Positions 33,536 to 55,386 of a stretch of 64,000 nucleotides of DNA are shown here, in pieces. The position numbers and the translations under genes were made by a program. Position 1 is the stretch's first letter; every line of letters begins with the position of its first letter. The notes beneath the pieces were generated by a model that worked only from the letters and a program-made list of their open reading frames with translations, searched no databases and was not told the origin of the DNA. The stretch is from an uncultured Chloroflexia bacterium. GTDB lineage: Bacteria; Chloroflexota; Anaerolineae; Anaerolineales; UBA4823. The DNA lies in NCBI GenBank assembly GCA_963709875.1, contig CAVPYB010000001.1, forward strand, positions 209,806 through 273,805, read 5' to 3'.

Positions 33536-33658
<123 letters not shown>

Positions 33659-38860: not shown

Positions 38861-40099
38861 AGGGCAAACGCATCTTAATTCTCCATCTGAGTGAAACCGA
38901 CCAGGACCTTGAGCAGGTAATCGTGGTTCCATCCTGCCAACAGGCGTTTGCCCTTGATGCCACGCTGGCAGGTTATCTCCTGCTTGAGCAAGTTCAGGGC
39001 GATATGTCGCAGCAGGGCGAAGTTCTCCGGTCCATGATCTTTGCGCACTCGGCAGCGGTCTTCGTCGAAGGCAAGATCCAGCGTCCAGTGCAGCTCATTC
39101 TCCGAGCGCACGGCCCCCAGGAGGCGTTTGGCTCCGGTGATACTGGCGATATGATAGCGGTCTTGGCTACTTTTCTCTTCACCGATCCAGCGCTGAGAGC
39201 GAATGCGGGACACGGTGGTCAAGTTCTTCCAGTTAGCAAAGCCGCGCAAGTAGCGCAAGACTTCAGGGTCGGAAATCGTCCAGCATTCGCGGATCTCGAT
39301 ACGCCCATGATCCTTGTTGACCGTCTTCTCATAGTCGAAGGCATAGGCTTGGTACTGGCTGTCTTCCAGATCGGCAAATACATGTTCGACATCTTCGTAG
39401 AGGTTGCCCTGGTTTTCCTTCAAGGAGAGCACATACTCCGCTTCTCGCTCGATAATCTTTTCGGCAATCTCGGTTTGACAGCCCATCGCATCGATGGTCA
39501 CAATGCAGCCCGCAACTTCCAAAACGTCTAAAAGCTGGGGAATGGCCGTGATCTCGTTCGACTTCTCGTCCACTTTGACCTGGCCCAGCACCAGGCGGTT
39601 GGCGCTGGCCCAGGCACTGACCATGTCGATGGCCATTTTGCCAATCCCTTTGTCATGCGAACGCCGCAGCACTTTGCCATCGATCGCAATCACCTGCCCG
39701 CCAATCACCTCAGCTACCGCATTCATCCAGCGCAGAAAACAGGTTTGGAACTGCTCCGGGTCCAGGCGGGCAAACACCCGGGTGAAGGTGTCATGCGAAG
39801 GGATGCCGTTGGGCACCTCCAGAAACGTCTGGAACCAGCCGATCCGGGCTTTGCCGAACTCTTCGACATCTTCCCAGTTGTCGGCTCCGGCAATCACCGC
39901 ACAGATGGCAATCACCAGAATATCCAGCAGCTTGTGCAACTTGGTGCGATCGATGCGCGGATCAGTCAAGTTGCCAAAATGGCTTTCGAGCGTTGGCAGA
40001 ATTTCGTCTTCCATGTCTTTTTCTCCCAGGTAGTATGACCTGGTATGATTAGCCAGGAAGATCGTTCTTGTCTAGATAAATTTAGATGCGTTCACCCTA
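38861..40099 (-). mobile_element. ISAs1-family insertion sequence with an 11-bp target-site duplication
   Basis: Inverted repeats AGGGCAAACGCATCTTAATT (38861-80) and AATTTAGATGCGTTCACCCT (40079-98). The direct repeat GATTAAGAACC flanks the element at 38850-60 and 40100-10. Confidence 0.85.
38875..40014 (-). CDS. ISAs1-family (H-repeat-associated) transposase, intact
   Basis: HFGNLTDPRIDRTKLHKLLDILVIAICAVIAGADNWEDVEEFG.., IAIDGK.LRRSHD, VTIDAMGCQ, HWTLDLAFDEDRCRVRKDHGPENFALLRHIALNLL. Confidence 0.9.
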   Translation of the reverse strand: MEDEILPTLESHFGNLTDPRIDRTKLHKLLDILVIAICAVIAGADNWEDVEEFGKARIGWFQTFLEVPNGIPSHDTFTRVFARLDPEQFQTCFLRWMNAVAEVIGGQVIAIDGKVLRRSHDKGIGKMAIDMVSAWASANRLVLGQVKVDEKSNEITAIPQLLDVLEVAGCIVTIDAMGCQTEIAEKIIEREAEYVLSLKENQGNLYEDVEHVFADLEDSQYQAYAFDYEKTVNKDHGRIEIRECWTISDPEVLRYLRGFANWKNLTTVSRIRSQRWIGEEKSSQDRYHIASITGAKRLLGAVRSENELHWTLDLAFDEDRCRVRKDHGPENFALLRHIALNLLKQEITCQRGIKGKRLLAGWNHDYLLKVLVGFTQMEN

Positions 40100-40118: not shown

Positions 40119-40147
40119 TTGACGGTAAGTGTCAGGCGTGATAGAAT
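40119..40147 (+). promoter_or_regulatory. Sigma-70-type promoter of tRNA-Lys
   Basis: TTGACG (40119-24), a 17-nt spacer, TAGAAT (40142-47), 30 nt upstream of the mature tRNA 5' end. Confidence 0.6.
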
Positions 40148-40177: not shown

Positions 40178-40249
40178 GGGCGCGTAGCTCAATGGTAGAG
40201 CAGTGGCCTTTTAAGCCATTGGTTGCAGGTTCGAGCCCTGCCGCGCTCA
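40178..40249 (+). tRNA. tRNA-Lys (anticodon UUU)
   Basis: Manual cloverleaf: acceptor GGGCGCG/CGCGCTC, D arm GCTC-AATGGTA-GAGC, anticodon arm GTGGC-CTTTTAA-GCCAT, variable loop TGGTT, T arm GCAGG-TTCGAGC-CCTGC, discriminator A. No encoded CCA. Confidence 0.95.
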
Positions 40250-40252
40250 CTG

Positions 40253-40279
40253 ACCCCCATACCTGGGGGTTATTTATTT
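40253..40279 (+). terminator. Terminator hairpin directly after tRNA-Lys
   Basis: ACCCCCA-tacc-TGGGGGT followed by TATTTATTT. Confidence 0.6.
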
Positions 40280-40400
40280 CGACATCCCGTATATGGCGGC
40301 TCTTGCTTGGGAATCTTCGAGTTTATCAATTAAAACCATGGTTTTGGCCCAGGAAAATTATTCTTTATCCAATGTGCTTGACCAGCGGAACTTATCGCTT

Positions 40401-40430
40401 GTCAACATCAGTCAACATCAGTCAACGCCA
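40401..40430. repeat. 10-bp tandem iteron-like repeat
   Basis: GTCAACATCA GTCAACATCA GTCAACGCCA (then AGCAAC), 150 nt downstream of the tRNA. Confidence 0.8.
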
Positions 40431-40691
40431 AGCAACAGATCAAGAAAGCACACCCATTAGGATAAACTCCGTCCGTGGTTCCGGACAAGATGAGTATTGA
40501 TCTGAAAGAGCACGATATCCTTTGCATTTACCCTGACTTGTAAGAGTATGTAGGTCCGACGAAGCAGTGTGGATACTGTTGCAGGGCGATTAATGAGTCA
40601 GCTTGATTTGTATATGTTTCTAATAACTGAGGTTTCTGTATTGTTCGATTCTCGCACAATCCACTGAACATAAGATTCCAGTAGCAGCAAA

Positions 40692-40724
40692 CATGACACA
40701 TCCTTGAATTCGGGATGTGTCATG
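40692..40724 (-). terminator. 12-bp perfect hairpin downstream of the small minus-strand ORF
   Basis: CATGACACATCC-ttgaattcg-GGATGTGTCATG. On the minus strand it is followed by TTTGCTGCT, a weak U-tract. Confidence 0.4.
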
Positions 40725-40746
40725 GACCAAAAATATATCAGCAAAT

Positions 40747-40953
40747 TCACGCAGGATCACGATCGGTCATCTTACCTCCAGCTTCCTGGGTTTGTTGATC
40801 AAGAAATTGCATCAACGCTTTCATATCTGCAAACCCATTTCTTTTGCCGGTATGAGGATCCTCAAGAGAAGCCCGCCAGATCCCATCGCCGTTCTGCTTT
40901 ACAAGCCACAAACGTAGTAGATAGGAGAGATAGCGATGTTTGCCCGGCTTCAT
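40747..40953 (-). CDS. Small conserved hypothetical protein (RLW...WRASLEDPHTG..GFA motif)
   Basis: MKPGKHRYLSYLLRLWLVKQNGDGIWRASLEDPHTGKRNGFADMKALMQFLDQQ. I recognise the motif as a recurrent small ORF type but cannot name a family. Start moved to the M at 40953. Confidence 0.45.
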   Translation of the reverse strand: MKPGKHRYLSYLLRLWLVKQNGDGIWRASLEDPHTGKRNGFADMKALMQFLDQQTQEAGGKMTDRDPA

Positions 40954-40969
40954 CAGCCACCTCACAACC

Positions 40970-41737
40970 TCAAGGGTTATATTTTCCAATACCAGCCAGG
41001 ACGTTTACGCGATCTTCACAAAGATCGGTGCCAATAACTTGCATGCGGAGTGAAATTGGTTTGTTGTTTTCAGTTGTCACATAAGCCTCATAGGTTGAGG
41101 TTTGGCCACTGCACCCAGCATCAAATGTTACCTTTCCTGCATCAAAGTTGTAAGTGCCAGAGTCTATCTGCCCAATGTTTTTCGACCCAGAAATGACCCG
41201 GTAGGCTCCATCTGCATCGAATTCAATCTTCAACCCCCCTTGTGGGTACCACCAAGTACCGACGATGTCATTAATCGTATTGGCGAGTGACTTTATTGGT
41301 GTGGGAAGTGGTGGAGGAAATTTCGCTAAAGAATCTGGAGCTGTAGTGAAGGTATAGGCCTGGATTTTTCCATTTTTAATCGTGGCGACCCACTCTCCTT
41401 CGATGAAGTCTACACCCATTGCTTGCAATCCTTCATCGGTATATGTAGAAATACAGGTCATGGTATCGCTCACAAATTTACAGTCCCTTAAAGATCCTGA
41501 ACCTATTCCAGAAGCAATTATCTCGTACCAGCTGCGAATTTCAGAGTGACCATTGTAAACACCGTCTCCTTCGGCAGGAGGGATAATGGTTACCTCCGCA
41601 TCTTCTGCCAGGTAAGAGAGTGCTGCATTAATTTCGCCTTTGTTCAAGGCTTCCTGCCAAGAATTGACCAAATCCTGGGTTGAAGGGCTGCATGCTGCAA
41701 TCAGGATGACAAAAAATATAAGTAACGTTATTTGTTT
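40970..41737 (-). CDS. Lipoprotein with an NTF2/SnoaL-like domain
   Basis: MKQITLLIFFVILIAAC (signal plus lipobox). The N-terminal ~110 aa resemble the SnoaL/NTF2 fold pattern. Function unknown. Confidence 0.5.
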   Translation of the reverse strand, partial: KQITLLIFFVILIAACSPSTQDLVNSWQEALNKGEINAALSYLAEDAEVTIIPPAEGDGVYNGHSEIRSWYEIIASGIGSGSLRDCKFVSDTMTCISTYTDEGLQAMGVDFIEGEWVATIKNGKIQAYTFTTAPDSLAKFPPPLPTPIKSLANTINDIVGTWWYPQGGLKIEFDADGAYRVISGSKNIGQIDSGTYNFDAGKVTFDAGCSGQTSTYEAYVTTENNKPISLRMQVIGTDLCEDRVNVLAGIGKYNP

Positions 41738-41870
41738 CATGGGATCCTCCAATCTGAAAGTCTAATTTTTTGACGCATTTTCGCCCTTATAATAACAATT
41801 AGCTGTTGGGAAAACGTGGGGTAAATACAACCTCTGATATTAATATGAATTACGTAGTTGGAAGGATGAT

Positions 41871-41916
41871 GGGGATGTTTGGGCGGACGTCGCCCGCCCG
41901 AACATCCCTGATTTTT
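41871..41916 (+). terminator. Strong orphan plus-strand intrinsic terminator upstream of the STAND gene
   Basis: 16-bp stem GGGGATGTTTGGGCGG / CCGCCCGAACATCCCT with two G-U pairs and a 7-nt loop, followed by GATTTTTCC. No plus-strand gene lies upstream of it. Confidence 0.6.
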
Positions 41917-42042
41917 CCTTAAACTGCGTAAGTCCTAATTAATTGAATTCGTTTATTAAATTGGTGAAACAAATATCTGGAGGTGCAGAAGTATCCCTGT
42001 ATAATTAACTCCAGGTCCACGTTTCTCACTTTTGAGGCGCAC

Positions 42043-45000
42043 ATGAAAACCTTAATAATTTCTGTGCTTGGGTCTCTACAAGTTGTTACAACAACGCCGA
42101 TCCAGAACAAGTTTGAGTCGAACAAAGTACGCGCCCTCCTGGCATATCTTGTTATCGAAATGGACCGGCCGCATCATCGCGAGGTGCTGGCCGATATGCT
42201 CTGGCCTGAAAGCTCGACTTTGACAGGACTGGCGAATCTTCGATACGCCCTGGCGGACCTCCGCAAAGTTATCGGAGATCATGATGCGAATCCCCCCTAC
42301 CTCTTGGTCAGCCGCGGAAATCTGCAATTTAACTCCTCGAGTAATTTTGAACTAGACGCCTCTCAATTTGCTAATTTTCTAAATACGAAAGATATTGAGA
42401 AACTCAAGCAAGGCATTGCGCTCTATCAGGGTGATTTCCTTAGCGGATTTCCTTCCATAGAGAGCAATATGTTCGAAGAGTGGCTCCTGCTCAAGCGCGA
42501 ACATTTCAAAGAGCTAGCCATCGAAGCCTTGCGCCTCATTGCTGACTATCACGAACATCGCGGAGAATACCAGCAAGCAATGCCATTTACCCGCTACCAG
42601 ACGGAGCTTGAACCCTGGCTCGAGGAAGCCTACCAGCAGTTGATGCGCTTACTCGCATTGGACGGTCAACGAAGTGCCGCGCTTGCCCAATACGAGATCT
42701 GCCGCCGTTCACTGATTTCTGAATTAGATGTTGAGCCAAGCGATGAAACGATCCAACTATACGAATCAATACGTGACGGGACTTTTAAAAAAGTTCCTCA
42801 CCTACTAAAACGAGAGCCTCCCGCGCCTGGCGAGCCGCCCTTCAAGGGACTTCAATATTTTGATGAGTCAGATGCAGATATATTCTTCGGTCGTGAAGCA
42901 TTGATTTCCCATTTGGTGGGACAGATTCAGTATCGGGAAAAATCAAGACGGGTGCGGTTTTTGGCAATCATTGGGGCATCAGGTAGCGGCAAATCATCAA
43001 TAATTAGAGCCGGATTGATTCCAGCCTTGAAACGAGACAGCAGGCCCCGCCTTGTTCAAATTATCACTCCAACAGAATACCCTCTTGATTCATTATCTTC
43101 CTGCGACATAGACAGCCCAACAGCAAAAGGACGACTTTTCTTCATTGTGGATCAATTCGAGGAGCTGTTTACTCTATGTCAGAATGAAAGTGAGCGCAGG
43201 TTTTTCATCGATAAATTGCTTAATGCCGCTGAAGAAGGATTGGCTTTTGTAGTCATCGCCCTTCGAGCAGACTTTTATGCAGCATGCGAACCTTATGAAA
43301 ACCTTCGCAGGATCCTGAGCCAGAACCAGGAATACATCGGTCCAATGAAGGCCAGCGAGCTAAGCCGGGCGATTGAAGAACCGCCCCGTGTTTATGGATG
43401 GCTGTTCGAACCGGGTCTGGCGGATTTACTGCTCCGCGACATTGGAGCAGATGGTGATCGCTCTCCAGAACCTGGTGCGCTCCCATTGCTGTCTCACGCG
43501 CTGTTGGAAACCTGGCATCGACGAAGTGGGCGAATGCTTACCCTGGCTGGCTACGCGGAATCAGGTAGTATCCATGGAGCCATCGCGAAAACCGCTGAAT
43601 TTGTATATGCCCAGCTATCAGAAAGCGAACAGTTCATCGCCCGCAATATCTTCCTGCGCCTCACAGAATTAGGAAAAGGAATGCAAGAAACTCGTCGCCG
43701 GGTTTTATTAAGCGAAATTATCCCGGCATCCAAATCAACATCGACCCAGGGTAAATCAATTGAAATCGTTTTGAAAATGCTTTCAGACGCGCGGCTTGTC
43801 ACCACAACAGAGGTGACCGCCGAGGTAGCACATGAAGCCTTGATCCGAGAGTGGGCCAGGCTTCACGAATGGCTGTCAGAGAATCGGGAATGGCTGCAAT
43901 TGCATCGTCATATCACAGAGTCAGCACAGGAATGGGAGTCGCAAGGGTATGATCCAGGTTTAGTCTATCGAGGTACTCGACTGGTACAGGCTCTGGAGTG
44001 GGCTAAAGCTCATTTGGAGGATTTGAATTTATTGGAGCGAGAATTTTTAGAAACCTCCAAATCTATAGAAGAAAAAGCAGCGGCTGAACGGGAGGAGCAA
44101 CGACAACGCGAATTGGAAGCTGCGCGCAAGTTAGCTGAATCTGAAAGAGAGCGTGCGGAAGGACAAACGCGAGCAGCCAGGCAGTTACGCCAGCGCGCCT
44201 TTTATTTAGCAAGTTTACTGTTTCTCTCACTGATCTTGGTCATCACTGCTTTTGTACAGCGTAATACTGCCAACAGACAGGCCCATCTGGCCTCAGCGCG
44301 TGAATTAGCCCTCGCATCAATCAATAATTTAGATAAGGACGCAGAACTCAGCATCCTTCTGGCATTAGAGGCAGTTTCGGAATCCAGATTAGCACGCGTA
44401 CCGGTTCCTTACCAGGTGCAAGATGCACTTCATAAAGCAATCCAAAATTCTAGGATCCATTACACCCTAGCAAAGCATAGTGGTGCTGTTGTAGCAGTAA
44501 CATACAGCCCCGATGGAAAGTTGTTGGCAACAGCCGGCAGTGATAAAAAAGTAATTCTTTGGGAAGCTGCAACGGGAAAAGAGCTGATGACTTTATATGG
44601 TCACAGCCAAGGATTGGAGGATATCGCATTTAGCCCGGACGGCAGGTATTTAGCGACAGCCAGCGATGACAAATCAGTCAAGCTGTGGAATCCTTTAAAT
44701 GGGCAAGAGTTGCGTTCGTTCACCGGCTTTACAGATGTCATTTGGAAAATCTCCTTTAGTGCAGATAGTAATTTCCTGGCAACCGGTGGCAACGAGACTG
44801 CCATCGTATGGGATATAAATACCGGACAATCAATTCTGATTTTAGAAGCGCAACACGCTCCTATCGCTTTTAGCCCCCTTGGGAAGTACCTTGCAACTTC
44901 TGGGGATGATGGCACAACAAAGTTATGGGATACAGATTCGTGGGAGGAATATCTTTCTCTTCCCTATGCCGCGAATGCGCTTGCCTTCAGTCCAGATGAG

Positions 45001-46344
45001 GAACGCCTTGTAACAGCAATGGAAGAGTTTAAAGTCTGGGATGTTCTAACCGGCGAGGAACTGATGACCCCGGCAGAATTTAAAGCTGTCGTCATAGGCA
45101 TCGAGTTTAATCCGGATGGAAGTCAGTTGGCGGCGGGAAGCCAGGATGGGACAGTGGGCATATGGGATTCGCAGACTGGAAAACGTTTGTTTATTCTGGC
45201 AGGTCATGCTGGTGCGGTCAATGATGTATCATTCAACCCAGCATGTACCGCTCCTCCAGTAGCTGCATTCGAATGGTGTGGAGGTTGGCTTGCCACGGCC
45301 AGCCGTGATGGAACGGCAAAAGTTTGGGATGTCTCTCCGGCTGGTAGTCGTGAGCTAGCTACGCTGCCGGGATTTTCTGGGTATCTCTTTAGTGAAACAC
45401 AACTATCTACCAATAAATTTATCAGCCAAAATGAGGTAGAAGTCAAAACATGGGATATATCGCTGGATGGAGCGAGCCGGTGGATTTCAAACAGCCTAAT
45501 CAGCCATCCGGCACCAATAATTCTTGGGAATAGCAGTATAGATGGATCGTTTATCGTTACCGTGGATATAGATAACACTGTGGAAGTCTGGAATGCAAAG
45601 GCGAGTAAAGAGGTGGCTTCTTTTCTGATAGATCAGAGCTCGCCATTGGCTGGTGTCGCCGTAAATTCTACAGGAACGCAAGCAACGACAGTAGGAAACG
45701 ACGGGATAGCAAAGGTATGGGACGCTACTACAGGGCGCGAATTGTTGAATTTGACAGGATTTGCTGGCGACATTGTTGGCGTTGCCTTCAGTCACGATGG
45801 AAAGCTAATTGCCATAAGTAAGTATGATGGTCCTGTCAAAGTATGGGAAATCGCAACTGGAAAGGAGGTATTAACCCTAATTGGCCACACACTGCCTGTC
45901 TATGTGATTTCTTTTAGTCCAGATGGTCAGCGAATTGCTACCGCCGGTATGGATCAGACCGCCAGAATATGGGATGTTCAAAGTGGGAACAATCTGTTCA
46001 AGCTAGAAGGACATACAGCTTCAGTCATCGCCTTGGCATTCAATACAGATGGATCTCTTCTGGTTACTGGCAGTCACGATGGAACAGCGAGAATATGGGA
46101 CATTTCGAATGGACCACAGGGAGGTGAGGAGTTACTCACTTTAATAGGGCATGATGGTTACATTGATTTCGTTTCATTCACCCCTGGGGGAAAACGTTTC
46201 GCTACAGGAAGTTTACAAGATGGAACGATACGCCTTTATCTTCTGGACATCATGGAAGTGGCTGAATTGGCACAAGCGCGACTTACCCGCTCACTGGCTC
46301 TAAAGGAGTGTCAGAAGTACCTGCATCTGGCAACTTGTCGCTAA
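42043..46344 (+). CDS. SARP (OmpR-type wHTH + BTAD) - STAND P-loop NTPase - TM helix - WD40 propeller protein, 1433 aa, intact
   Basis: N-terminus VLGSLQV...NKVRALLAYLVIE..HREVLADMLWP + BTAD (IALYQGDFL..EAYQQLMRLLALDGQRSAALAQYEICRRSL). PFKGLQYFDESDADIFFGRE. Walker A GASGSGKSS and Walker B FFIVDQFEE. Coiled coil, then TM AFYLASLLFLSLILVITAFVQ. Many WD40 units (GHSQGLEDIAFSPDGRYLATASDDKSVKLWN etc.). Confidence 0.85.
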   Translation: MKTLIISVLGSLQVVTTTPIQNKFESNKVRALLAYLVIEMDRPHHREVLADMLWPESSTLTGLANLRYALADLRKVIGDHDANPPYLLVSRGNLQFNSSSNFELDASQFANFLNTKDIEKLKQGIALYQGDFLSGFPSIESNMFEEWLLLKREHFKELAIEALRLIADYHEHRGEYQQAMPFTRYQTELEPWLEEAYQQLMRLLALDGQRSAALAQYEICRRSLISELDVEPSDETIQLYESIRDGTFKKVPHLLKREPPAPGEPPFKGLQYFDESDADIFFGREALISHLVGQIQYREKSRRVRFLAIIGASGSGKSSIIRAGLIPALKRDSRPRLVQIITPTEYPLDSLSSCDIDSPTAKGRLFFIVDQFEELFTLCQNESERRFFIDKLLNAAEEGLAFVVIALRADFYAACEPYENLRRILSQNQEYIGPMKASELSRAIEEPPRVYGWLFEPGLADLLLRDIGADGDRSPEPGALPLLSHALLETWHRRSGRMLTLAGYAESGSIHGAIAKTAEFVYAQLSESEQFIARNIFLRLTELGKGMQETRRRVLLSEIIPASKSTSTQGKSIEIVLKMLSDARLVTTTEVTAEVAHEALIREWARLHEWLSENREWLQLHRHITESAQEWESQGYDPGLVYRGTRLVQALEWAKAHLEDLNLLEREFLETSKSIEEKAAAEREEQRQRELEAARKLAESERERAEGQTRAARQLRQRAFYLASLLFLSLILVITAFVQRNTANRQAHLASARELALASINNLDKDAELSILLALEAVSESRLARVPVPYQVQDALHKAIQNSRIHYTLAKHSGAVVAVTYSPDGKLLATAGSDKKVILWEAATGKELMTLYGHSQGLEDIAFSPDGRYLATASDDKSVKLWNPLNGQELRSFTGFTDVIWKISFSADSNFLATGGNETAIVWDINTGQSILILEAQHAPIAFSPLGKYLATSGDDGTTKLWDTDSWEEYLSLPYAANALAFSPDEERLVTAMEEFKVWDVLTGEELMTPAEFKAVVIGIEFNPDGSQLAAGSQDGTVGIWDSQTGKRLFILAGHAGAVNDVSFNPACTAPPVAAFEWCGGWLATASRDGTAKVWDVSPAGSRELATLPGFSGYLFSETQLSTNKFISQNEVEVKTWDISLDGASRWISNSLISHPAPIILGNSSIDGSFIVTVDIDNTVEVWNAKASKEVASFLIDQSSPLAGVAVNSTGTQATTVGNDGIAKVWDATTGRELLNLTGFAGDIVGVAFSHDGKLIAISKYDGPVKVWEIATGKEVLTLIGHTLPVYVISFSPDGQRIATAGMDQTARIWDVQSGNNLFKLEGHTASVIALAFNTDGSLLVTGSHDGTARIWDISNGPQGGEELLTLIGHDGYIDFVSFTPGGKRFATGSLQDGTIRLYLLDIMEVAELAQARLTRSLALKECQKYLHLATCR

Positions 46345-46502
46345 CGAAATCAATCGCCATATTGGTGATGAATCGGGGAGCAGACATAAAAGGTAATCAT
46401 CAAAACTTCACAGCTGAACCCCCGGACTTTGAAAAAATATTTCAAAAGTAGCTTCGACCACAATTTAAGTCAATGTACTTCCTGTCAAGTAGTACAATTC
46501 TT

Positions 46503-46800
46503 CTAAAATGATGATCTTTCTCTAAGTCATTGTGAAGCGAATCCATTGGTACTTCCACGTTGACAGACCTTTACTAAAAATATCCAAGAGACTTATTTCT
46601 CCATTCGTCCAATGGACTGGGGCAATTCTGCCAGGCTCTTGGTTGGATGAAGCGGTTACAGGGATCTCGTCCTTTTAAGCCATTGGTTGCAGGTTCGAGC
46701 CCTGCCGCGCTCACTCAATCTCCACTTTGACCCCGAAACGGGGCGTAAAACGAGTGATTTCTCCCACTAAGACCTGCCAGTTGGCGGGTTTTTGTGTTTA
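46503..46800 (+). repeat. ~300-bp duplicated module, copy A, containing the tRNA-Lys 3' 45-mer (46671-46715)
   Basis: It aligns with 52683-52990 on both sides of the exact 45-mer. It contains TAAAAT, nested helices (CCAAGAG/CTCTTGG) and a terminator CCTGCCA-gt-TGGCGGG-TTTTTGTGTTT. Confidence 0.9.
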
Positions 46801-46908
46801 ACTTCTGGGTGAAAATAAATTACCAGAGTAAGTTGCAAATAACGTATCTCTTGTTTGGCGGTTAGAATTAATTTATTAAGAACATATCACTCTTTTTGTC
46901 TGGTAATG

Positions 46909-46936
46909 CACAACAATAAGGTGTATAATTGTTGTG
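46909..46936 (+). promoter_or_regulatory. Promoter -10 plus palindromic operator of the RHH/MazF pair
   Basis: Inverted repeat CACAACAAT (46909-17) / ATTGTTGTG (46928-36) embraces TATAAT (46924-29). Confidence 0.5.
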
Positions 46937-46973
46937 TAGTTCAGGCATGCGGGCAAAAGGAGGCGATCCAAGT

Positions 46974-47207
46974 ATGCACCGTACTCAAATCTTACTCGAA
47001 CAAGAACAGCACAAAGCTCTCACAGCCATAGCCCAGCGCGAGAATCGCAGCCTGTCCGATGTGGTCAGGGAGATGTTGCGGAAGCAGCTTGAAGAACGTA
47101 AAAAAATGGAGCTGACCGCAGCCGCGAGGGCATTACTGCCTGATTACCAGGGCGATTCTGAATTGACCGCTTTCAACGCGCTCGATGCAGAGGATTTCCA
47201 TGCGTAA
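46974..47207 (+). CDS. Ribbon-helix-helix (CopG/MazE-like) antitoxin
   Basis: MHRTQILLEQEQHKALTAIAQRENRSLSDVVREMLRK shows the RHH pattern. RBS AAAGGAGG. The stop overlaps the toxin start (ATGCGTAA). Confidence 0.8.
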   Translation: MHRTQILLEQEQHKALTAIAQRENRSLSDVVREMLRKQLEERKKMELTAAARALLPDYQGDSELTAFNALDAEDFHA

Positions 47208-47538
47208 AGGCGAAGTGTGGCTCATAAATCTTGATCCAACCATTGGAGCAGAGATCCAAAAAACGCGCCCGGCGATCATCGTCAATGAAGACGCTATTGG
47301 CATTTTACCGCTGCGAGTCATCGTCCCGTTGACGGACTGGAAAGAGCACTACCAGATCGCCCCGTGGATGGTGCGGATCGATCCGAACACGTCGAACGGC
47401 TTGAGCAAACCTACCGCCGCAGATGCATTTCAAATCCGCTCGGTGTCCCAGGTCAGGTTTATCAACCGCCTGGGTCGAATTTCTAGTGAACAGCTTTTGG
47501 AAATCTTGAAAGCCATTCAAACCGTCATTGGCACTTGA
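47200..47538 (+). CDS. mazF: MazF/PemK-family toxin endoribonuclease
   Basis: MRKGEVWLINLDPTIGAEIQKTRPAIIVN..LSKPTAADAFQIRSVS matches the PemK/MazF pattern. Confidence 0.85.
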   Translation: MRKGEVWLINLDPTIGAEIQKTRPAIIVNEDAIGILPLRVIVPLTDWKEHYQIAPWMVRIDPNTSNGLSKPTAADAFQIRSVSQVRFINRLGRISSEQLLEILKAIQTVIGT

Positions 47539-47661
47539 TTGCGCAGAAAAATCCTGTTTCTTCCCCGCTTATCGGGCCGGTTATTCAAAGCGTTGTCCAG
47601 GTGAATTTGATGAGACATGATTATTAAGGTGCGTGGCGATATACCAGTGCGAGATATTTCT

Positions 47662-49620
47662 CATAACTCGACGTTCGCTCATTTTTTAGCACAAAAACCA
47701 AATTTCTGGTATGCTCGCCAGCATGGAGAAAATCGAAGTTGGCGAGGTACAGGTTGAAAGACTGGATGATATACCTGTCATCTTTGGACATTTACACAAG
47801 ATTCACATACAAGGGGTCATTGATCGAGAGATCGAAACCCACGGCAACTGGGAAGGGCTGAGCCCTGGATGGCTGATCACGATCTGGCTGGTCCACATTC
47901 TCTCGGAACACAACCACAACATGGATCGGGTGCAGGAATGGGTAGCCAAGCGGTTACAGGTCTTGCGAGCATTGACGGGGCAAGTCCTGACAGAGCTGGA
48001 CTTTACCGACGACCGGCTGGCATTGTGCTTGCGGAAGCTGAGCCAGAGTGAAACCTGGCAATAGATCGAAGCTCAACTCGGCGTGCATCTGGTGCGGGTG
48101 TACCGGCTAGGAGCAAAGCCGACCGTGCGGCTGGACGCCACCACGGGGACGGTAAACCACGACCCGGATAAACACACCCTTTTCCAAGTTGGTAAGGCCA
48201 AGAATGGGCAGTATGAGACCCAATACAAGCTGATGCTGGCCAGCCTGGATCCCCTGGGGCTGCCCTTGGCGGTGGACGTTGTTTCCGGGGAGCGTGCCGA
48301 TGATCCGCTCTATCTGCCTTGTTACCAGCGGGTGAAGCAGGTGCTCTTTGAAAACGGTGTCCTGGTGGTGGGCGACAGCAAGATGAGTGCCTTCTTTACT
48401 CGAGCAGCCCTTGCCGCTGGCGAGGATTTCTACCTAACGCCGCTGGCCCATCTCAAGGATGAGCCCGGGCTGCTGGAAGCGCTGCTGACGCCCTGGATGG
48501 AGCGGGAAGATGAAATGGAATGCATTTTCCTGCCTGAAGATGGCCCTAATCCGGACCCGACGCTGGCCATTGGGCATGGTTTTGAGGTCAACAGAAACCA
48601 AGAAGTCGATGTGGATGGTCAGGGTGCGGCCTGGACGGAGCGGCTTCTGGTGGTACGTTCTCACCAATATGAGAAGACCATCAAGAAAGGGCTGCATCAT
48701 CGCTTGGAGAAAGCGGAGCAAGCGCTGAAAGGCTTGACCCCAGCTCGAAGCCGTGGCAAGCGTCAAATCGAAGATGAAGCCAGCCTGCTGGCAGCCATCC
48801 AGCGGATCGAAGAGAAGTACCGAGTGGCAGGGCTTTTCGAGTATCACTATGAGCAAGAGGTTTCTGAGCAGCAGGTGCGAGCCTACGGTGATCAGCCTGC
48901 TCGCACAGAACGCCAGGTGCGCTTTCAATTGACGGTCGAACGCAATCCGGAAGCCATCGCAGCCGCTGAATTCAACGCCGGATGGCGTATCTACCCACCA
49001 ACGCACCCGCTGAACAGCTGCCCTTGGACCAGGCTGTGCTAGCCTACCGGGACCAGTACATCGAGGAGAACTTCTTCCGCCGTTTGCAGGGCAAGATCCT
49101 ATCTATCACCCCAGTCTATGTGCAGCGTGATGACCATGCCAAAGACTTGTTTCATCTGCTGACCCTGGCCGCAAGACTGCTGGCCCTGGGCGATCATCTG
49201 GCCAAAGCAAATCTGGTCCAAGCGCAAGCCGAACTGGCGGGGATCTATCCCGGCAACCCAATGCGCAGTACTGCCACGCCAACCACGGAGCGCATGCTGG
49301 CCGCTTTCGATAACATCAACCCGACCGTCATACCGGTTGCGGGTCAACTGCACTATCAGATCACACCCCTCACAGCCGTGCAGCTGCGTATCCTGGAACT
49401 CTGGGAGCTGCCCGATACCCTGTACACGCAATTTTGCGCATAAAAACCCAGACAGTAGTGCGTCAGTTCCTTGTATGTGATTGTTAATGTCCCGTTTTTC
49501 AACCTTTTCGTGGGTATTTGCTGGCCTGGACGATGGATTTCAAACTCAGATTGTTTCGTCCATTTCTGCTAACGCCCGAATCCGTTTTTTCGCTTTCAAA
49601 ATCAGCGAACGTTCAGTATG
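47662..49620 (+). mobile_element. IS1634-like (IS4 superfamily) insertion sequence with a decayed transposase
   Basis: Imperfect ~29-bp terminal inverted repeats: CATAACTCGACGTTCGCTCATTTTTTAGC (47662-) versus the reverse complement of GCTTTCAAAATCAGCGAACGTTCAGTATG (-49620). No clear target duplication seen. Confidence 0.6.
47711..49443 (+). pseudogene. IS1634-family transposase with one in-frame TAG (48062-64) and one frame break (~48990)
   Basis: ORFs 47711..48064 and 48083..49042 are in the same frame, separated only by TAG (..SETWQ*IEAQLG..). The C-terminal part (..YLPTNAPAEQLPLDQAVLAYRDQY..) is in ORF 48982..49443. Confidence 0.8.
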
Positions 49621-49633
49621 AAGGATCGAAGCG

Positions 49634-50326
49634 ATGGATTACCAGGAATTCATTAATCTGTGGCTTGAAGCATTGGGGCAGGCGCGTTTCCCCAGTCTTC
49701 ACCTCCTGCGTCCCAGTGAAACCATCGATATCCGTTCCATGGATCGCACCTATAAGAACTATCTTCGGTGGCCGGAGACGCCTGAAACCAAGACTTTCCA
49801 TGTGACCGCTGAAATCTCATGGGTATGGGACTCCCTGCTTTCGGCTCGCTTTGCGACCACCGAAGAAGATATGCTGATGCAAATCTATGGTGATTTCGGC
49901 ATCTATGAGGATACTGAACCTCCCTGGTTGCGGATCGACATGGCCTTACATGCTACAATCTCGCTCGATAAACGTTTCCCTTTACCATTATTAGAAATTT
50001 GGCAGCGCTGGGAAAGAAATGTGAGCTTAGAGTTGGAGCCCTTCTTACCGGGCGGGAACTATAGTGAAGATAGTGACCAGGATACGCTTGGCTGGCATGG
50101 AAATCCGGAAGCAGTAATCACTTTTGATGCTCAAGGTCAAACGTTCTTACAGGCAGTAACTCTGAGGTCGTGGCAGGGAATCAATCTGCCGCGGCAATGG
50201 GATGATCCAGATAAAGCAGACCCTGATCTAGGTGAACAACTTTACCAATTCGCTACAAATATCAAGCAAGCGTTAGGAACCTGGCAAAATAGTCTTGTAC
50301 ACTTGCTTGAAGGTCATGAACCATGA
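49634..50326 (+). CDS. Hypothetical protein (230 aa), first gene of a three-gene operon
   Basis: Intact ORF. Its stop overlaps the next start (ATGA at 50323-26). No family recognised. Confidence 0.5.
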   Translation: MDYQEFINLWLEALGQARFPSLHLLRPSETIDIRSMDRTYKNYLRWPETPETKTFHVTAEISWVWDSLLSARFATTEEDMLMQIYGDFGIYEDTEPPWLRIDMALHATISLDKRFPLPLLEIWQRWERNVSLELEPFLPGGNYSEDSDQDTLGWHGNPEAVITFDAQGQTFLQAVTLRSWQGINLPRQWDDPDKADPDLGEQLYQFATNIKQALGTWQNSLVHLLEGHEP

Positions 50327-51215
50327 AAACGAACGTTGAACGCGTCCTGGATTATTTATGCTCGGTGAGCCCAAATGGTGCTACCAACGCGGAAATACGT
50401 GTGGCAACGGGCATTCAGCCGCACCAGCAAGTTTACATGATCACCAGTAGTCTCGTTCAGATGCGATTCGGGATCCGTTTTCTCACCTGGACAGATTATG
50501 GAATATTATGTTTCCCTTCAGGAGTCTCACAATGCCTCGCAGACCCGAAACCCTGGAACTTGTGCTTATTGCGGTGAGATGATTACCAAGCGCGGTGTAG
50601 TTAAACACATAGATAAATGTCCTAAAAGACAGGGAGCTCTTTCTGCTGCAGAAGCCAGCAGCCGGCCGGTGGAAACGCTCTGGCATTTACGCGTTCAAGA
50701 TGCTTACGATAAGGATTTTTGGCTCGACCTGGAAATGGTCGGCTCAGTATCACTCGATAAGCTCGATAAATACCTGCGCGCCATCTGGTTGGAATGTTTG
50801 CGGTCACCTGAGCAAGTTCACGATTGGCGGGTGGGGTGGCTTGGATATAGGTAAAGCGCGTAAAGCCAATGCGATATTTGAACCTGGACTGGTTCTGCGC
50901 CATCTGTATGACTTTGGCACCACGTCCGAGACCGATATCAAAGTGGTTGGATTCCGGGAAGGAAAAGCGACCACGAAACATCCAATTGCCTTGCCGGCGC
51001 GCAATCGGATGCCAGAATTTGTCTGCCAGGAATGCGGTCCGCCGGCGCAATGGCTGTGTATCGAATGTGTTTACGAAGAGGAAAATAGCGGCTATCTTTG
51101 TGACGATCACATGGAAGAACACCCGCACGAGAATTATGGCGAACCGATGCCCTTGGTCAACTCTCCACGCACCGGGATGTGCGGTTATGATGGCCCAGCC
51201 GAGCCGCCGTATTAA
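50323..51215 (+). pseudogene. wHTH + Zn-ribbon + MM3350/PRiA4_ORF3-like domain + C-terminal Cys/His cluster protein, with two homopolymer frame breaks
   Basis: N-terminus ERVLDYLCSVSPNGATNAEIRVATGI (wHTH). CAYCGE..KHIDKC. LWHLRVQ..FWLDLEM..LDKLDKYLRAIWLEC|CGHLSKF..HLYDFGTTSETDIKVVG (PRiA4_ORF3-like). CQECG..CIEC..CDDH..H. Breaks at the T-runs at 50479-82 and 50797-99. Confidence 0.65.
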
Positions 51216-51232
51216 CAGGGTGTCCAACAACC

Positions 51233-51778
51233 ATGCTACCGGCCCAGCCACAATTCCCTCTCGATGATTCGACCTGGATCATCTCCGACACTCATTTCTT
51301 CCACCAGAACATCGGCCGATACTGTGATCGTCCGGATGGCTGGCAGGAGATGATCATCGACAACTGGAACCGCCTAATTCAACCCGAAGAGATTGTCTTC
51401 CACGTCGGAGACCTGGCGCTTGGCAGGAGGAAAAATATCGAAGGCTTAGCACCTCTGCTCAACGGCCGGCTCTACCTTATGCGGGGCAACCATGATCAGC
51501 GCAGCAATGGTTTCTATCAGCACCTGGGGATTACCCTGGTATCAGATCCATATCGAATGGATCACCCCTCGGGGTTGAACCTGATCTTTTCGCACCGCCC
51601 TATCGTCCCCCTGGAACTGGGCTTGCTCAACCTGCACGGTCACATCCACAACAATCTAGCTCCCGAGCTGGGAGCACAATACGTCAACCTGTGTGTCGAA
51701 GTTCGAGACTATCGCCCCTGGCGGTTGGAGGAGATTCTAGCTCCTTATCAGCCGTCTACTGAACCCCATTTTGAATAG
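51233..51778 (+). CDS. Small calcineurin-like metallophosphoesterase
   Basis: Motifs ISDTHFFH, HVGDLALG, RGNHD, SHRP, HGHIHN. Confidence 0.8.
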   Translation: MLPAQPQFPLDDSTWIISDTHFFHQNIGRYCDRPDGWQEMIIDNWNRLIQPEEIVFHVGDLALGRRKNIEGLAPLLNGRLYLMRGNHDQRSNGFYQHLGITLVSDPYRMDHPSGLNLIFSHRPIVPLELGLLNLHGHIHNNLAPELGAQYVNLCVEVRDYRPWRLEEILAPYQPSTEPHFE

Positions 51779-51856
51779 CCGGCATTCAGGGCTTAATTTA
51801 TCGCTTCGGTAATGCTGCTGGTGTACTCCAGTAAGCCGTTATAAATCGACGCACTA

Positions 51857-51895
51857 ATTGTGTACACAATAATCATTGTTTACTTTCTGTGCACA
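51857..51895 (+). promoter_or_regulatory. Palindromic operator candidates upstream of phd/PIN
   Basis: ATTGTGTACACAAT (perfect 14-bp palindrome, 51857-70) and TGTGCACA (51888-95), followed by TATACT (51901-06) and RBS GGAGGTG. Confidence 0.45.
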
Positions 51896-51933
51896 TTATG
51901 CTATACTGGTTCTGTTTAGAATGGAGGTGCAGT

Positions 51934-52230
51934 ATGACTATAGTTATTGGTGCGCGTGAGGCTCGCCGGCGGTTTGCTGATTTGCTTGGGCGGGTCGGCT
52001 ACGGCGGAGAGGTTGCCATCGTTGAGCGGTCGGGCAAACCCATGGTGGCGCTCATCCCCGTAGAAGTTTATGAACAGTTGGTGGCTGAGCGTGAGGCGCG
52101 TTTCCAGGTGCTGGATCGCATCCGCGGCAAGCTGCCGGAGATCCCAGAAGAAGAAGTTGAGACCGATATCAGCCAGGCTATTGATGTTGTGAGGAAGTCA
52201 GCGTCTAAAGAACGGGCAGAGTCTGATTAG
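51934..52230 (+). CDS. Phd/YefM-family antitoxin
   Basis: MTIVIGAREARRRFADLLGRVGYGGEVAIVERSGKPMVALIPVEVYEQL shows the Phd/YefM pattern. Confidence 0.8.
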   Translation: MTIVIGAREARRRFADLLGRVGYGGEVAIVERSGKPMVALIPVEVYEQLVAEREARFQVLDRIRGKLPEIPEEEVETDISQAIDVVRKSASKERAESD

Positions 52231-52235
52231 CCACC

Positions 52236-52664
52236 ATGCTGCGCATCGTGATCGACACGAATGTGATTGTCAGCGGCATCTTGAGCCGTAAAGGAACGCC
52301 GGCTGAACTATTAAATGCCTGGCGTGAGCGGCGGTTTTTGTTGCTCAGCTCCTCTGCTATCGTTGCCGAAGTACGGGCCGTCATGCAATATCCGCGCATC
52401 CATAAAAAATATCATCTCAGCGATGATGATATTGAACAGACGATTACACTCTTGGAACATGACTCGCTGTTGGTAGCAGGAGACGCCGATGTCACCGGAA
52501 GTGTCCCGGATGATCCAAAGGATGAGATGTTTCTGGCTTGCGCTTTGGACGGGCAGGCGGATGCAATCGTGAGCGGTGACCATCACCTGCTAGATCTAGG
52601 TGTCTTTCGGGATATCCCGATTATCAATGCTCGTCAATTTCTGGACCAACTGAAGCAAGAGTGA
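52236..52664 (+). CDS. PIN-domain toxin (VapC-like)
   Basis: MLRIVIDTNVIVSG..., DDPKDEMFLACAL, AIVSGDHHLL carry the PIN acidic residues. Starts 6 nt after the antitoxin. Confidence 0.8.
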   Translation: MLRIVIDTNVIVSGILSRKGTPAELLNAWRERRFLLLSSSAIVAEVRAVMQYPRIHKKYHLSDDDIEQTITLLEHDSLLVAGDADVTGSVPDDPKDEMFLACALDGQADAIVSGDHHLLDLGVFRDIPIINARQFLDQLKQE

Positions 52665-52682
52665 CCTTGCGTCGCCATGTGG

Positions 52683-52990
52683 TAGAATGAACTCAATCGC
52701 TGTCTTTCGCTGAGTCATTGTGAAGCAAATCCATTGGTTGCTTCCGCGTTGACAGACCTTTACTAAAAATATCCAAGAGACTTATTTCTCCATTCGTCCA
52801 ATGGACTGGGGCGATTCTGCCAGGCTCTTGGTTGGATGAAGCGGTTACAGGGATCTCGTCCTTTTAAGCCATTGGTTGCAGGTTCGAGCCCTGCCGCGCT
52901 CACTCTATTTCCACTTTTGCCCCTAAAAGGGCGTAAAACGAGTGATTTCTCCCACTAAGACCTGCCAGATGGCGGGTTTTTGTGTTTAAT
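52683..52990 (+). repeat. ~300-bp duplicated module, copy B, containing the tRNA-Lys 3' 45-mer (52860-52904)
   Basis: See copy A. TGGTAGAAT at 52681-88. Terminator CCTGCCA-ga-TGGCGGG-TTTTTGTGTTT. Confidence 0.9.
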
Positions 52991-53215
52991 CCCCCACTAT
53001 TACCGTTTTTCGGGTATGCCAGAAAATCGGGTTCAGAATTTATTGCCAATGTTCGCGTTTTTGTTCGAGCCAGTCAACAAGGGTTAACGGTACACCAAAA
53101 GCCTTGTCAAGGATATTCGATGATGATCGGACGGCACTATCGTCCTTGGAAAGGCTCTGGGGAACTGTACCAGAAGGGACTGCTCGGTATGCCTCAAGTA
53201 ATCCCAATGTTTAAC

Positions 53216-55386
53216 TTAGCTGAACTTCAGGGGCAGACGGCGAAAGCGCTGACCCGTGGCAGCAAAAACCGCATTCGCCACAGCAGCTGGAATGGGACCA
53301 ATCGGCGGTTCACCCATACCCGAAGGCGTTGAGCGGCTGTTGAGCACCAGGACATCGATATCCGGAGCGTCGGCATTACGCAGCAGCGGATATTCATTGA
53401 AGTTGCTCGCCTTGAATGCACCGTCTTCGATCAGCACCACCTCCAGCAACGTGGAGCTCAAGCCCATCGTGATCGCGCCCTCCGTCTGGGCTTTGACGCT
53501 GTCTGGATTGATAGCCATGCCAGGGTCAGCAACGGCGGTCACTTTGTGAATACGAATCTGACCATTCTCAACGGAGACTTCAGCAATTTCGACGATTATT
53601 GTACCAACATCGTAGCTCATCGCCAGCCCTTGCGCGTGACCAGCTGGCAGGGCTGCTCCCCAGTTTGCCTTTCGGCAGCCGTTTGCAGGGCATTGCGAAT
53701 TCTCTGCCCCTTTTCATTATCCGGCAGATGGCGCAGCCGGAACTCCAGTGGGTCCAGACTTGCGGCTGCAGCCAGCTCATCGATGAAACTCTCCACTGCA
53801 AAGGTATTGGCCATCAGACCCAACCCGCGCCACCAGCCAGTCGAGACCGGTAATTTCACCAGCCAGGCTGTGGTTTGGATATTCTGCACCCCATAATTGA
53901 TGGTAGCCCCGCGATAGGAGCCAAAATCGGCGCCCAGCAACCTGCCAACAGCACTGGGCAGGAAGGCAAAGGCGACCTCCCCGCTGGCTGCCTGGTGCTC
54001 TAGCGCCAGCATATTCCCATCTTCAGCCAGGCTGGCACGCAGGATATGATGCGTGGGTGGACGTACAAAACCGCTGCGGAAATCTTCTGGGCGGTTCATC
54101 GCCACCTGCACCGGTCTACCCGCAGCCTGCGATAGGCGAGCCGCCTCCACCGCGGCCCGCTCGTCGATCTTGCGCCCGAACCCACCTCCCAGGTAAACGG
54201 GATGGATGACAACCTCTTCTTCTTTTCGCCCAATGGCATCCGCAACCGCACCGCGCAACCGGTTAGCTGCCTGTGTCGAAGCCCAGACTTCCACCTTTTC
54301 TGTCCGCACATCAGCAACGGCTGCCAGAGGCTCTAAATAGGCGTGGTATGCCATCGGGGTGCGGTATTCAGCTTCGACCAACGTGCCACGTGCCAGCGCC
54401 TGATCCAGGTTGCCTTCTTTCTGGATCACCACGCCCTGACCTTTGCCTACCGTGACCATGGCCTCAATTTCCTGCTGCTGCCATAACCTGCCAGCGTCCC
54501 ATTCCAGCTGCATCTGAGACAGCGCAGTATAAGCCTGCTCGCGCAACTCGGCCACCACCCCGGCAAAATCGTCATCTGCCACAACCTGCACCACCCCGGG
54601 TTGACTTTCGGCCTGACCCGGAGCAGCCCTCCTCAACTTGCCATCGATGGTCTCGGGGCGAGCGACAGCACCATACAACATTCCCGGCACACGCACATCG
54701 AATCCATAAACCGCCTGACCGGTGATCTTTGCAGGTAAATCTACGCGCGGCAGCGGCTGACCGATGGTACGATACTGGCTGGGTGGCTTGAGCGCGGGCG
54801 GGGATTCGGGTATCTCCCATTCACCTGCTGATATAAACAGGTCGCCATATGTACGCTGCTGGCTGGGATCTGATTTCAAACTGAAAACGCCGTTTTCCAG
54901 GTTAAGATTTTCGGGTTGGGTATTTAACTGCAAGGCGGCCTCGGCGCGCAGCAGCTCTCGCAGCGTGGCTGCCACTTCCAGCAAAGGAACATACAAACCA
55001 GAAATCGTGTTGCTGGCTGATGTGGCAACCGGGTCTGCCAGCCGGTCTGTCGCTGCATGGTGCACCCGGATCTGCTCCAGGTCAATTTCAAGCTCCTCCG
55101 CTGCAATCTGAGCCAGACCGGTGTGCACACCCTGGCCCATCTCGGATTTCGGCAGGTAGAGATTGACCGTGTTATCTGGCAGGATTTCAAACCAGGCATC
55201 CGGAGGGGCATCAAGATTTGAAGGAGGGCCGCCCGACTCTTCCAGAAATTCTGCCAGCCTCAGGCGTAATGGCGGCGTGCCCAGCCTTACCCCGACGTAA
55301 AGCCCGGCAGCACCCACGCCAAGCATAATCAGGAAATTACGCCGGCTCAGACGCCTTCGTTTTTGGGGGGTAATCTGTTCGCTCAT
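53216..55386 (-). pseudogene. Molybdopterin-binding subunit of an IorB/aldehyde-oxidase-type oxidoreductase (Tat signal), with one homopolymer frame break
   Basis: Start MSEQITPQKRRRLSRRNFLIMLGVGAAG (twin-arginine). ORF 53617..55575 continues in ORF 53216..53620. Restoring one A in the run at 53670-72 gives ..AAEKANWGAALPAGHAQGLAMSYDVG.. Confidence 0.75.

Follow-up and report, generated by a model that had tools for sequence, protein, structure and literature searches.

Two-armed modules at a Chloroflexia tRNA-Lys gene as probable attP-like junctions between stacked integrative islands without an integrase of their own

We analysed a 64-kb stretch of DNA from an uncultured Chloroflexia bacterium (referred to below as the window), in which two modules of about 290 bp lie downstream of an intact tRNA-Lys(UUU) gene. 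It is highly probable that these modules are complete attP-like P-O-P' junctions between integrative islands, which have been stacked at the 3' end of the tRNA gene. In such a junction P would be the conserved right end of an island (about 190 bp, with one inverted GTTGAC), O a 45-bp copy of the tRNA sequence from the anticodon loop to the 3' end, and P' the left end of the next island. The latter would open with a terminator, by which the rebuilt tRNA gene is completed; full-length P' arms, whether of type A or of type B, would have three GTCAAC repeats in tandem at a distance of 150-200 nt from O. Comparison with related loci shows two types of arm, an unoccupied junction and a polymorphic order of the islands, and we infer that a lambda-type tyrosine integrase works through the core and the arm-type sites. 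The duplication of the modules would be the outcome of a known mechanism (tandem site-specific integration at a tRNA gene) in a new family of elements, unusual only in that the islands lack an integrase of their own.

Results

Structure of the repeats

The tRNA-Lys(UUU) gene (40178-40250, + strand; ARAGORN; Rfam tRNA, 74.6 bits) is the sole tRNA gene in the window and represents the chromosomal anchor (B-O) of the array. It is preceded by a promoter, TGaTAGAAT, whose -10 hexamer lies at 40142-40147. A repeat search of the window identified three exact copies of the 3' part of this gene, each of 45 nt and on the + strand: O copy 1 within the gene itself (40207-40251), O copy 2 (46671-46715) and O copy 3 (52860-52904). 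The identity block extends from the last base of the 5' strand of the anticodon stem to the 3' end of the tRNA plus 1 nt, and the intact gene is located on one side of the island, with a repeat of its 3' part on the other.

An earlier note on this DNA, made without database searches, had claimed that copies 2 and 3 share much more than the 45-nt core, and both the repeat search and BLAST revealed direct repeats comprising the two arms (46515-46801 and 52703-52989, modules of approximately 290-300 bp). The longer direct repeats are restricted to these two copies: 46552-46742/52741-52931 (96%), 46732-46801/52920-52989 (93%) and 46515-46550/52703-52738 (92%). In the BLAST alignment the left arms (46515-46670 and 52703-52859; 156-157 nt) are 95.5% identical, the right arms (46718-46801 and 52907-52989; 84 nt) 91.7% and the core 100%, which is close to the differences counted by hand in the note (about 5 on the left and 8 on the right). 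As it also reported, the flanks of the intact tRNA gene align with neither copy. The right boundary of the module is sharp, with homology ending after GTTTAA (46801 and 52989), and the left one is gradual, since similarity fades at approximately 46485 and 52675.

The arms can be assigned to the ends of successive islands. The intact tRNA gene is followed by a P' arm of type A (40252-40460, +), the left end of island E1, which contains a terminator hairpin (40254-40269) with a T run, CCAATGT (40369-40375) and tandem GTCAAC repeats at 40401, 40411 and 40421; the same arm occurs after P-O in the L002/L010 contig (99% identity), L007 and L008 (L numbers denote the loci retrieved for comparison). 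The P arm of E1 (46485-46670, +), defined by alignments of 10-12 copies, forms the left arm of module copy 2; it contains a -10 box, TACAAT (46493-46498), a conserved block starting at 46526, CCATTGG at 46543, an inverted GTTGAC (46559-46564) and CCAATGG at 46609. O copy 2 is followed by a proximal P' arm of type B (46716-46801, +), which is both the right arm of copy 2 and the left end of island E2, with a small hairpin (46731-46743), a terminator (46769-46792) with a T run, and the terminal GTTTAA (46796-46801). This is a short variant without the distal GTCAAC repeats, which runs on into an RHH-MazF gene pair exactly as in L014-L016.

The P arm of E2 (52675-52859, +), defined from the alignments of copies, is the left arm of module copy 3, with an extended -10 box, TGGTAGAAT (52680-52688), the conserved block from 52714 and GTTGAC at 52748-52753. 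To the right of O copy 3 lies a type B P' arm (52905-53092, +) of a third, otherwise lost island (the E3 remnant), recognized from its collinearity with L017 4287-4490 and from pattern statistics. Its proximal part (52905-52989) is the right arm of copy 3, including a terminator at 52957-52980, and is followed by TCCCCCACT..., CCAATGT at 53046, GTCAAC at 53073 and a decayed GTTAAC at 53083.

Several smaller features had been described in the earlier note. Several of the positions are off by one; for example, the helix CCAAGAG/CTCTTGG is present, at 46584-46590/46636-46642, and is uninformative, since it is invariant. The intrinsic terminator was located in both copies, and the small hairpin of the right arm covaries not only between the two copies, as had been noticed, but also across seven homologues (three pairs). 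The TAAAAT taken for the -10 box of copy 2 has to be replaced by TACAAT (46493-46498), the positional homologue of TAGAAT in copy 3. Alignments revealed that the hairpins GAAGC-N13-GCTTC and TCCATT-cgtcc-AATGGA are not retained in homologues, and that CTGG-N10-CCAG shows uncompensated variation in its 3' strand. The motifs named as recombinase arm sites were mostly wrong: the left ATTTCTCCA is not retained in homologues, and the two occurrences of ATTTCTCC(C)A are not conserved together. The repeats that do track the arms are the three GTCAAC in P' and the single inverted GTTGAC in P. In addition, CCATTGG/CCAATGG is conserved, with two copies in P and one in O.

Islands and their surroundings

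Island E1 (40252-46670, +) is 98.5% identical to L002 1341-7936. It encodes a 260-aa ORF (40970-41752, - strand) and a 1453-aa BTAD-nSTAND1-WD40 protein (41983-46344; Pfam), which is followed by the P arm. The body of E2 (46802-52682, +; Pfam, PHROGs) contains RHH-MazF genes (46929-47538), fragments of DUF4277 and DDE transposase genes (47711-49042), unknown ORFs, a metallophosphoesterase gene (51233-51778) and a Phd-PIN pair (51889-52664). The order metallophosphoesterase-Phd-PIN-P is a right end conserved in L010, L011 and L018, and L017 keeps PIN-P.

To the left of the tRNA gene (up to 40177) we found chromosomal genes (SAM riboswitch-MetK, CbiO/Q/M, Fur and thioredoxin), and the segment MetK-CbiO/Q/M-Fur-Trx is syntenic with L013 and L017. 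The GC content is 0.59-0.61 in this chromosomal region versus 0.45-0.55 in E1 and E2 (0.45-0.49 in E1), which suggests a foreign origin of the islands.

Some further features of the surroundings deserve mention. The SAM riboswitch (33536-33658, +; Rfam, 85 bits) precedes the S-adenosylmethionine synthetase gene, as it does in L013. An IS4-type transposase gene (DDE_Tnp_1 plus DDE_Tnp_1_assoc; 38875-40014, -) is located between the thioredoxin gene and tRNA-Lys, and is absent from this site in L013 and L017. To the right of the array (53216-55874, -), the genes of a molybdopterin-dependent dehydrogenase appear split or rearranged: a 134-aa piece corresponds to the end of MoCoBD_2 and a 652-aa ORF has an unusual domain order. 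Possibly they suffered damage during the loss of the third island. Between 56000 and 64000 the GC content again decreases to 0.44-0.48, compared with 0.59-0.61 to the left of the tRNA gene, and the variable, possibly foreign region may therefore reach the end of the window. A hairpin, AAAGTGCAAATAA-N-TTTATTTGCACTTT, is conserved between the type B arm and the first island gene (Fic or RHH-MazF) in three homologues (L014:14540-14575; L003:~3440-3475, -; L017:4843-4878), with a decayed remnant at 46926-46945 after copy 2 of the window.

Homologous modules and the two types of P' arm

The earlier note had recommended the collection of homologous loci, and 13 further copies of the module were found in Chloroflexia genomes and metagenomes. 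Scanning with exact patterns (one genome per species) identified two Chloroflexia/Chloroflexota assemblies (L002 and L003) and the metagenome scan six further stretches (L004-L009); other contigs were reached through homologues of the PIN toxin (L010, which is more of the L002 contig, L011, L013, L014-16, L017 and L018). Plasmid and phage collections gave generic tRNA matches only, and three other patterns had no matches in viral contigs. A 26-nt segment of the P arm (46594-46619) is exactly matched in L001 (10368-10393), within an ORF of a 171-kb IMG/VR phage contig with unrelated flanks; this match is unlikely to be due to chance and has no evident meaning.

P adjoins the tRNA-Lys-type O in 13 places besides the window, among unrelated neighbours: two in the L002/L010 contig and one each in L003, L004, L005/L009, L006, L007, L008, L011, L012, L014-16, L017 and L018. 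In L004, L011 and L014 the sequence of O matches that of the host's tRNA. The sequences following O fall into two classes. Type A, defined by the terminator hairpin, CCAATGT and three tandem GTCAAC at +150 to +175, is found after the intact tRNA gene of the window and after P-O in L010, L007 and L008. Type B, the right arm of copies 2 and 3, recurs in L010, L003, L006, L014-16, L017 and L018.

L017 shares its chromosomal left flank with the window, and the tRNA-Lys genes of the two are identical. The type B arm of L017 passes through TCCCCCACT... and TTATTTCCAATGG to reach three tandem GTCAAC repeats, all of them intact, and is located within a 6.4-kb repeat-bounded island that ends in PIN-P. 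Up to 53092, the sequence to the right of copy 3 can be aligned collinearly with the L017 arm; it retains one GTCAAC and the decayed GTTAAC. In the window, the pattern GTCAAC-N4-GTCAAC occurs only at 40401-40426 and 53073-53088 (3 hits versus 0.15 expected; no shuffle reached 3). Across 268 kb of fetched DNA, tandem GTCAAC is confined to P' arms, with the exception of one GTCAAA pair in L014, which looks like a chance occurrence. The inverted GTTGAC, present once in P, is invariant in all of the 12 aligned copies. The element-side arms are therefore conserved and carry repeated sequences that may be regarded as putative arm-type sites.

P itself evolves slowly, at a rate as low as that of the first and second codon positions of the neighbouring PIN gene: identity between copies is 92-95% for P, versus 81-88% for the third positions of these codons, which points to constraint acting on P.

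Two observations concern the PIN genes and the tRNA sequence apart from P. A 1.07-kb mini-island of L013 (9357-10500), comprising Phd-PIN only, lies between an intact tRNA-Lys gene and a partial repeat of O, without a P arm and with the same left-flank synteny as the window; it seems that the association of Phd-PIN with tRNA-Lys is broader than that of the P arm. At the locus of another PIN homologue (P0060) we found a stand-alone Phd-PIN pair without an att site. A degenerate 3' part of tRNA-Lys recurs in L017 (4220-4286 and 10722-10790), L011 (9108-9170) and L013 (9466-9545); it contains a near-palindrome (CCAATGGCCAGCCATYTGG), and its T loop is interrupted by a hairpin. The L017 island is bounded by two such degenerate copies of O as direct repeats, an arrangement for which a single crossover, when attempted as an explanation, does not account.

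An unoccupied junction and the order of the islands

In the L002/L010 contig E1 is followed by a single module. At the diagnostic sites up to 46539, the left flank and P of this module (the second of L010) agree with copy 2, and the four P-arm sites beyond this position are changes peculiar to copy 2, which are silent on the crossover. Its right arm is mostly copy 3-like and has the same continuation, TCCCCYACT, as copy 3. To judge from these alignments, the module is an unoccupied E2 site, in which the left flank of copy 2 is joined to a copy 3-like right arm. An E2-type island is located to the left of E1 in this contig instead. The order of islands is thus polymorphic: the relative lacks E2 at the E1/E3 junction and carries an E2-type island beyond the opposite end of E1, and the breaks occur at the repeats.

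The array may have been formed as follows. An ancestral array, tRNA-P'A-E1-P-O-P'B-(E3), would have been entered by circular E2, whose attP (P-O-P'B) would have recombined at O with the E1/E3 junction, leaving P(E1)-O-P'B(E2) as copy 2 and P(E2)-O-P'B(E3) as copy 3. Since the L002/L010 contig holds the unoccupied junction, E2 (46802-52682) would have entered a pre-existing P-O-P' by Campbell-type recombination; both arms would be shared by copies 2 and 3 because P-O-P'B was integrated into P-O-P'B, which gives two complete modules. In the L002 lineage, another E2-type island would separately have been inserted at the tRNA-proximal site. Since the P'B of E2 lacks the distal GTCAAC repeats, E2 may have lost its mobility. 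The attR of the array (P-O-B') is absent from the window.

Absence of an integrase gene

Searches with Pfam, PHROGs and phmmer/hmmsearch (using seven tyrosine recombinases) detected no integrase in E1 or E2, in the other parts of the window that were examined, or in any of the module-flanked islands. No cognate integrase gene was found beside an att site, no member of the family in the 14 contexts examined bears one, and no related integrase-bearing element with which the att sites could be shared was identified in the examined parts of the 64-kb window or in the fetched loci. The islands are att-flanked and contain neither integrase nor transfer genes (E1 has three genes; E2 consists of toxin-antitoxin pairs, IS debris and unknown ORFs), which is the constitution of cis-mobilizable elements. 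Since no island encodes an integrase, the latter would have to act in trans, and the islands are most likely non-autonomous elements moved by a hypothetical recombinase supplied in this way.

The integrases of L005 and L019 were considered as candidates for the enzyme of this family and rejected: they adjoin a core of the tRNA-Met type, and tandem GTCAAC was not found in those loci. The loci themselves contain a parallel module built on the 3' half of tRNA-Met(CAU), starting in the anticodon loop (L019:10505-10700, also L020; L005:4970-5160). It consists, in order, of an extended -10 box, an unrelated arm of about 110-125 nt, the tRNA-Met 3' half and a terminator, directly followed by tyrosine integrase genes. 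The -10 box and approximately 35 nt of leader in L019 are homologous to L003 and L007. In L005 an O of the tRNA-Lys type is cut after GCCATTGG, and the tRNA-Met module takes the place of its distal part.

Alternative explanations

The earlier note had left two readings side by side, a complete P-O-P' region duplicated by Campbell-type insertion and a transcript of about 280 nt ending in a tRNA-like 3' domain. The former is borne out by the 13 other sites, unrelated in their flanks, at which P adjoins O, the unoccupied junction in a relative, and the right flank of copy 3, which is a decayed P' arm collinear with L017. The latter would make the module a non-coding RNA gene of about 290 nt, or an RNA gene as well as an att site, with a promoter at the left edge of P, a leader joined to the tRNA-Lys 3' half, and a function of its own (e.g. 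in recombination or in the control of Phd-PIN), and we consider it unlikely. An extended -10 box (TGGTAnAAT or TGCTACAAT) is indeed present in all 10 full-length aligned copies, approximately 35-45 nt upstream of the conserved block and in variable surroundings; it also occurs in L011, L017 and L018, and is absent only from the truncated L014-16 copy. With the terminator that follows O in every case, it delimits a unit at the level of the consensus. The slow evolution of P, the minimum free energy z-scores of the two copies in a folding test (-1.97 and -2.92) and the parallel in L019, where the same -10 box and a similar leader precede a tRNA-Met 3' half, also speak for a transcript. However, the z-scores cover the T arm and the terminator, Rfam (with gathering scores and with E values up to 10) returned only a weak partial tRNA match, and P offers no acceptor-stem partner for the tRNA half. 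In RNAalifold analysis of 12 copies the covariation term was +0.9, and substantial compensatory changes were confined to the T arm copied from the host tRNA. Two of the hairpins of the earlier note are not kept and a third varies on one strand only. The helices of P, which is almost invariant, are neither confirmed nor refuted by such comparisons. Compensatory change within the module is thus limited to the short trailer hairpin of the right arm, whose covariation, like the kept stem of the terminator, is expected of a rebuilt tRNA trailer. Transcription of P is possible, and a structured RNA is not supported. A more specific proposal is rather improbable: that P, in every island of this integrase-less family, is the template of a promoter-driven RNA of about 290 nt (leader plus tRNA 3' half), to which a sister family with a tRNA-Met half would have a counterpart. 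Such an RNA could help to mobilize the islands in trans or to control this process, or its target could be the neighbouring PIN toxin, possibly a tRNA nuclease.

Two other histories of the duplication are both very unlikely. E2 might have entered by general homologous recombination over the shared segment of about 290 bp, with a circle or a related strain's DNA as the source of this segment; the duplication would then be a by-product. Such a length is sufficient for a RecA-dependent crossover, an integrase is absent, and the diagnostic sites place the switch only between 46540 and 46730; yet the att junction occupied by E2-type islands varies from genome to genome, P being invariably at their right end and P' at their left, and the incoming DNA would still need a joined P-O-P'B, itself a product of site-specific excision. 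The type B arm might, instead, be the native chromosomal trailer of tRNA-Lys (B'), in which case copy 2 would be the true attR, RHH-MazF an old neighbour of the tRNA gene, and copy 3 the result of a later rearrangement, e.g. via the IS remnants of E2. This would agree with the transposase fragments within E2, with L014-L016, where type B and RHH-MazF are contiguous and followed by chromosomal-looking Znu/Fur genes, and with L013, where the terminator of the intact tRNA gene resembles that of type B. But in L017 the type B arm lies inside an island and runs into three arm-type repeats, the flank of copy 3 keeps the same distal arm, and a history of this kind needs more steps than a single integration.

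Tandem P-O-P' junctions are preferred even though some observations count against them, among these the missing integrase gene, the incomplete P'B arm of E2 and the lack of an attR in the window. The resemblance of the type B terminator to the one directly after tRNA-Lys in L013 leaves room for a chromosomal origin of the arm. The near-invariance of P over more than 100 contiguous bases, together with the conserved -10 box, exceeds what is expected of patchy protein binding. Finally, L017 is irregular, with its degenerate O boundaries and T-loop hairpin.

Two further candidates were rejected. A coding function of the left arm is not plausible: its frame of about 46 codons, closed by the TAA in the anticodon loop, lacks a start codon and gave no hit in Pfam, and compensating indels are present in L006. 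A homing guide of a CRISPR-associated transposon (type V-K) does not fit either: there are no Cas12k or Tns genes, the 45-nt match ends exactly at the 3' end of the tRNA, the 10-bp arm-type tandems do not resemble Tn7-like ends, and the host belongs to the Chloroflexia.

Discussion

If the junction model is correct, a puzzling two-armed duplication is explained by ordinary site-specific accretion, and the islands constitute a previously undescribed family specific for tRNA-Lys in Chloroflexia. Their cargo is connected with defence and toxin-antitoxin functions (the STAND-WD40 protein, AbiE, Fic, MazF and PIN), and the P arm may serve as a precise marker for the identification of such islands in metagenomes. 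Naming the mover, and the constraint which acts on P, could reveal a helper-satellite relationship in a phylum whose mobile elements have been little studied.

The modules can be compared with the attP of lambda-type phages, in which the core O lies between P and P' arms with arm-type integrase sites. Common features are a core dyad around a 7-nt loop (here GTGGC-CTTTTAA-GCCAT in the tRNA), long asymmetric arms, and three tandem repeats of about 10 bp in P' (xAGTCAACx, close to the lambda CAGTCACTAT) opposite an inverted copy in P. The likeness of the arms is one of sequence. Unlike in lambda, the integrase and excision factor are putative, and P has two additional core-like CCATTGG motifs as well as a promoter-like box reading towards the core.

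The anticodon loop is reportedly one of the sublocations within tRNA genes at which integration occurs, as Williams is said to have described in Nucleic Acids Research in 2002. The islands agree with this sublocation in that the identity block runs from the anticodon stem-loop to the 3' end of the tRNA and the element supplies a replacement 3' half and a terminator; nothing essential differs. Tandem arrays which include integrase-less members are reportedly also formed by the ICESt1/CIME elements of Streptococcus thermophilus.

The closest parallel within the phylum is provided by the tandem ssrA islands of Dehalococcoides (Chloroflexota), 15 of which are without an integration module and have been suggested by the authors to be possibly cis-mobilizable (PMC3146451). 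The two systems differ in the target (the anticodon loop of tRNA-Lys versus the T loop of ssrA) and in the length of the identity block (45 bp versus 20 bp) (PMC3146451). They also differ in the probable enzyme: the lambda-like tandem arm-type repeats described here point to a tyrosine integrase, whereas the Dehalococcoides islands use a CcrB-like serine recombinase (PMC3146451). Moreover, unlike in arrays of the Dehalococcoides type, no integrase-bearing member was found among our 14 contexts. In other respects the likeness is considerable. In both cases several islands are arranged in tandem downstream of a single small-RNA gene in a host from the phylum Chloroflexota, a direct repeat of the 3' end of this gene bounds each island, and some or all of the islands are without an integration module; the number and order of islands vary between related genomes, and the element side is marked by additional conservation beside the repeats (PMC3146451).
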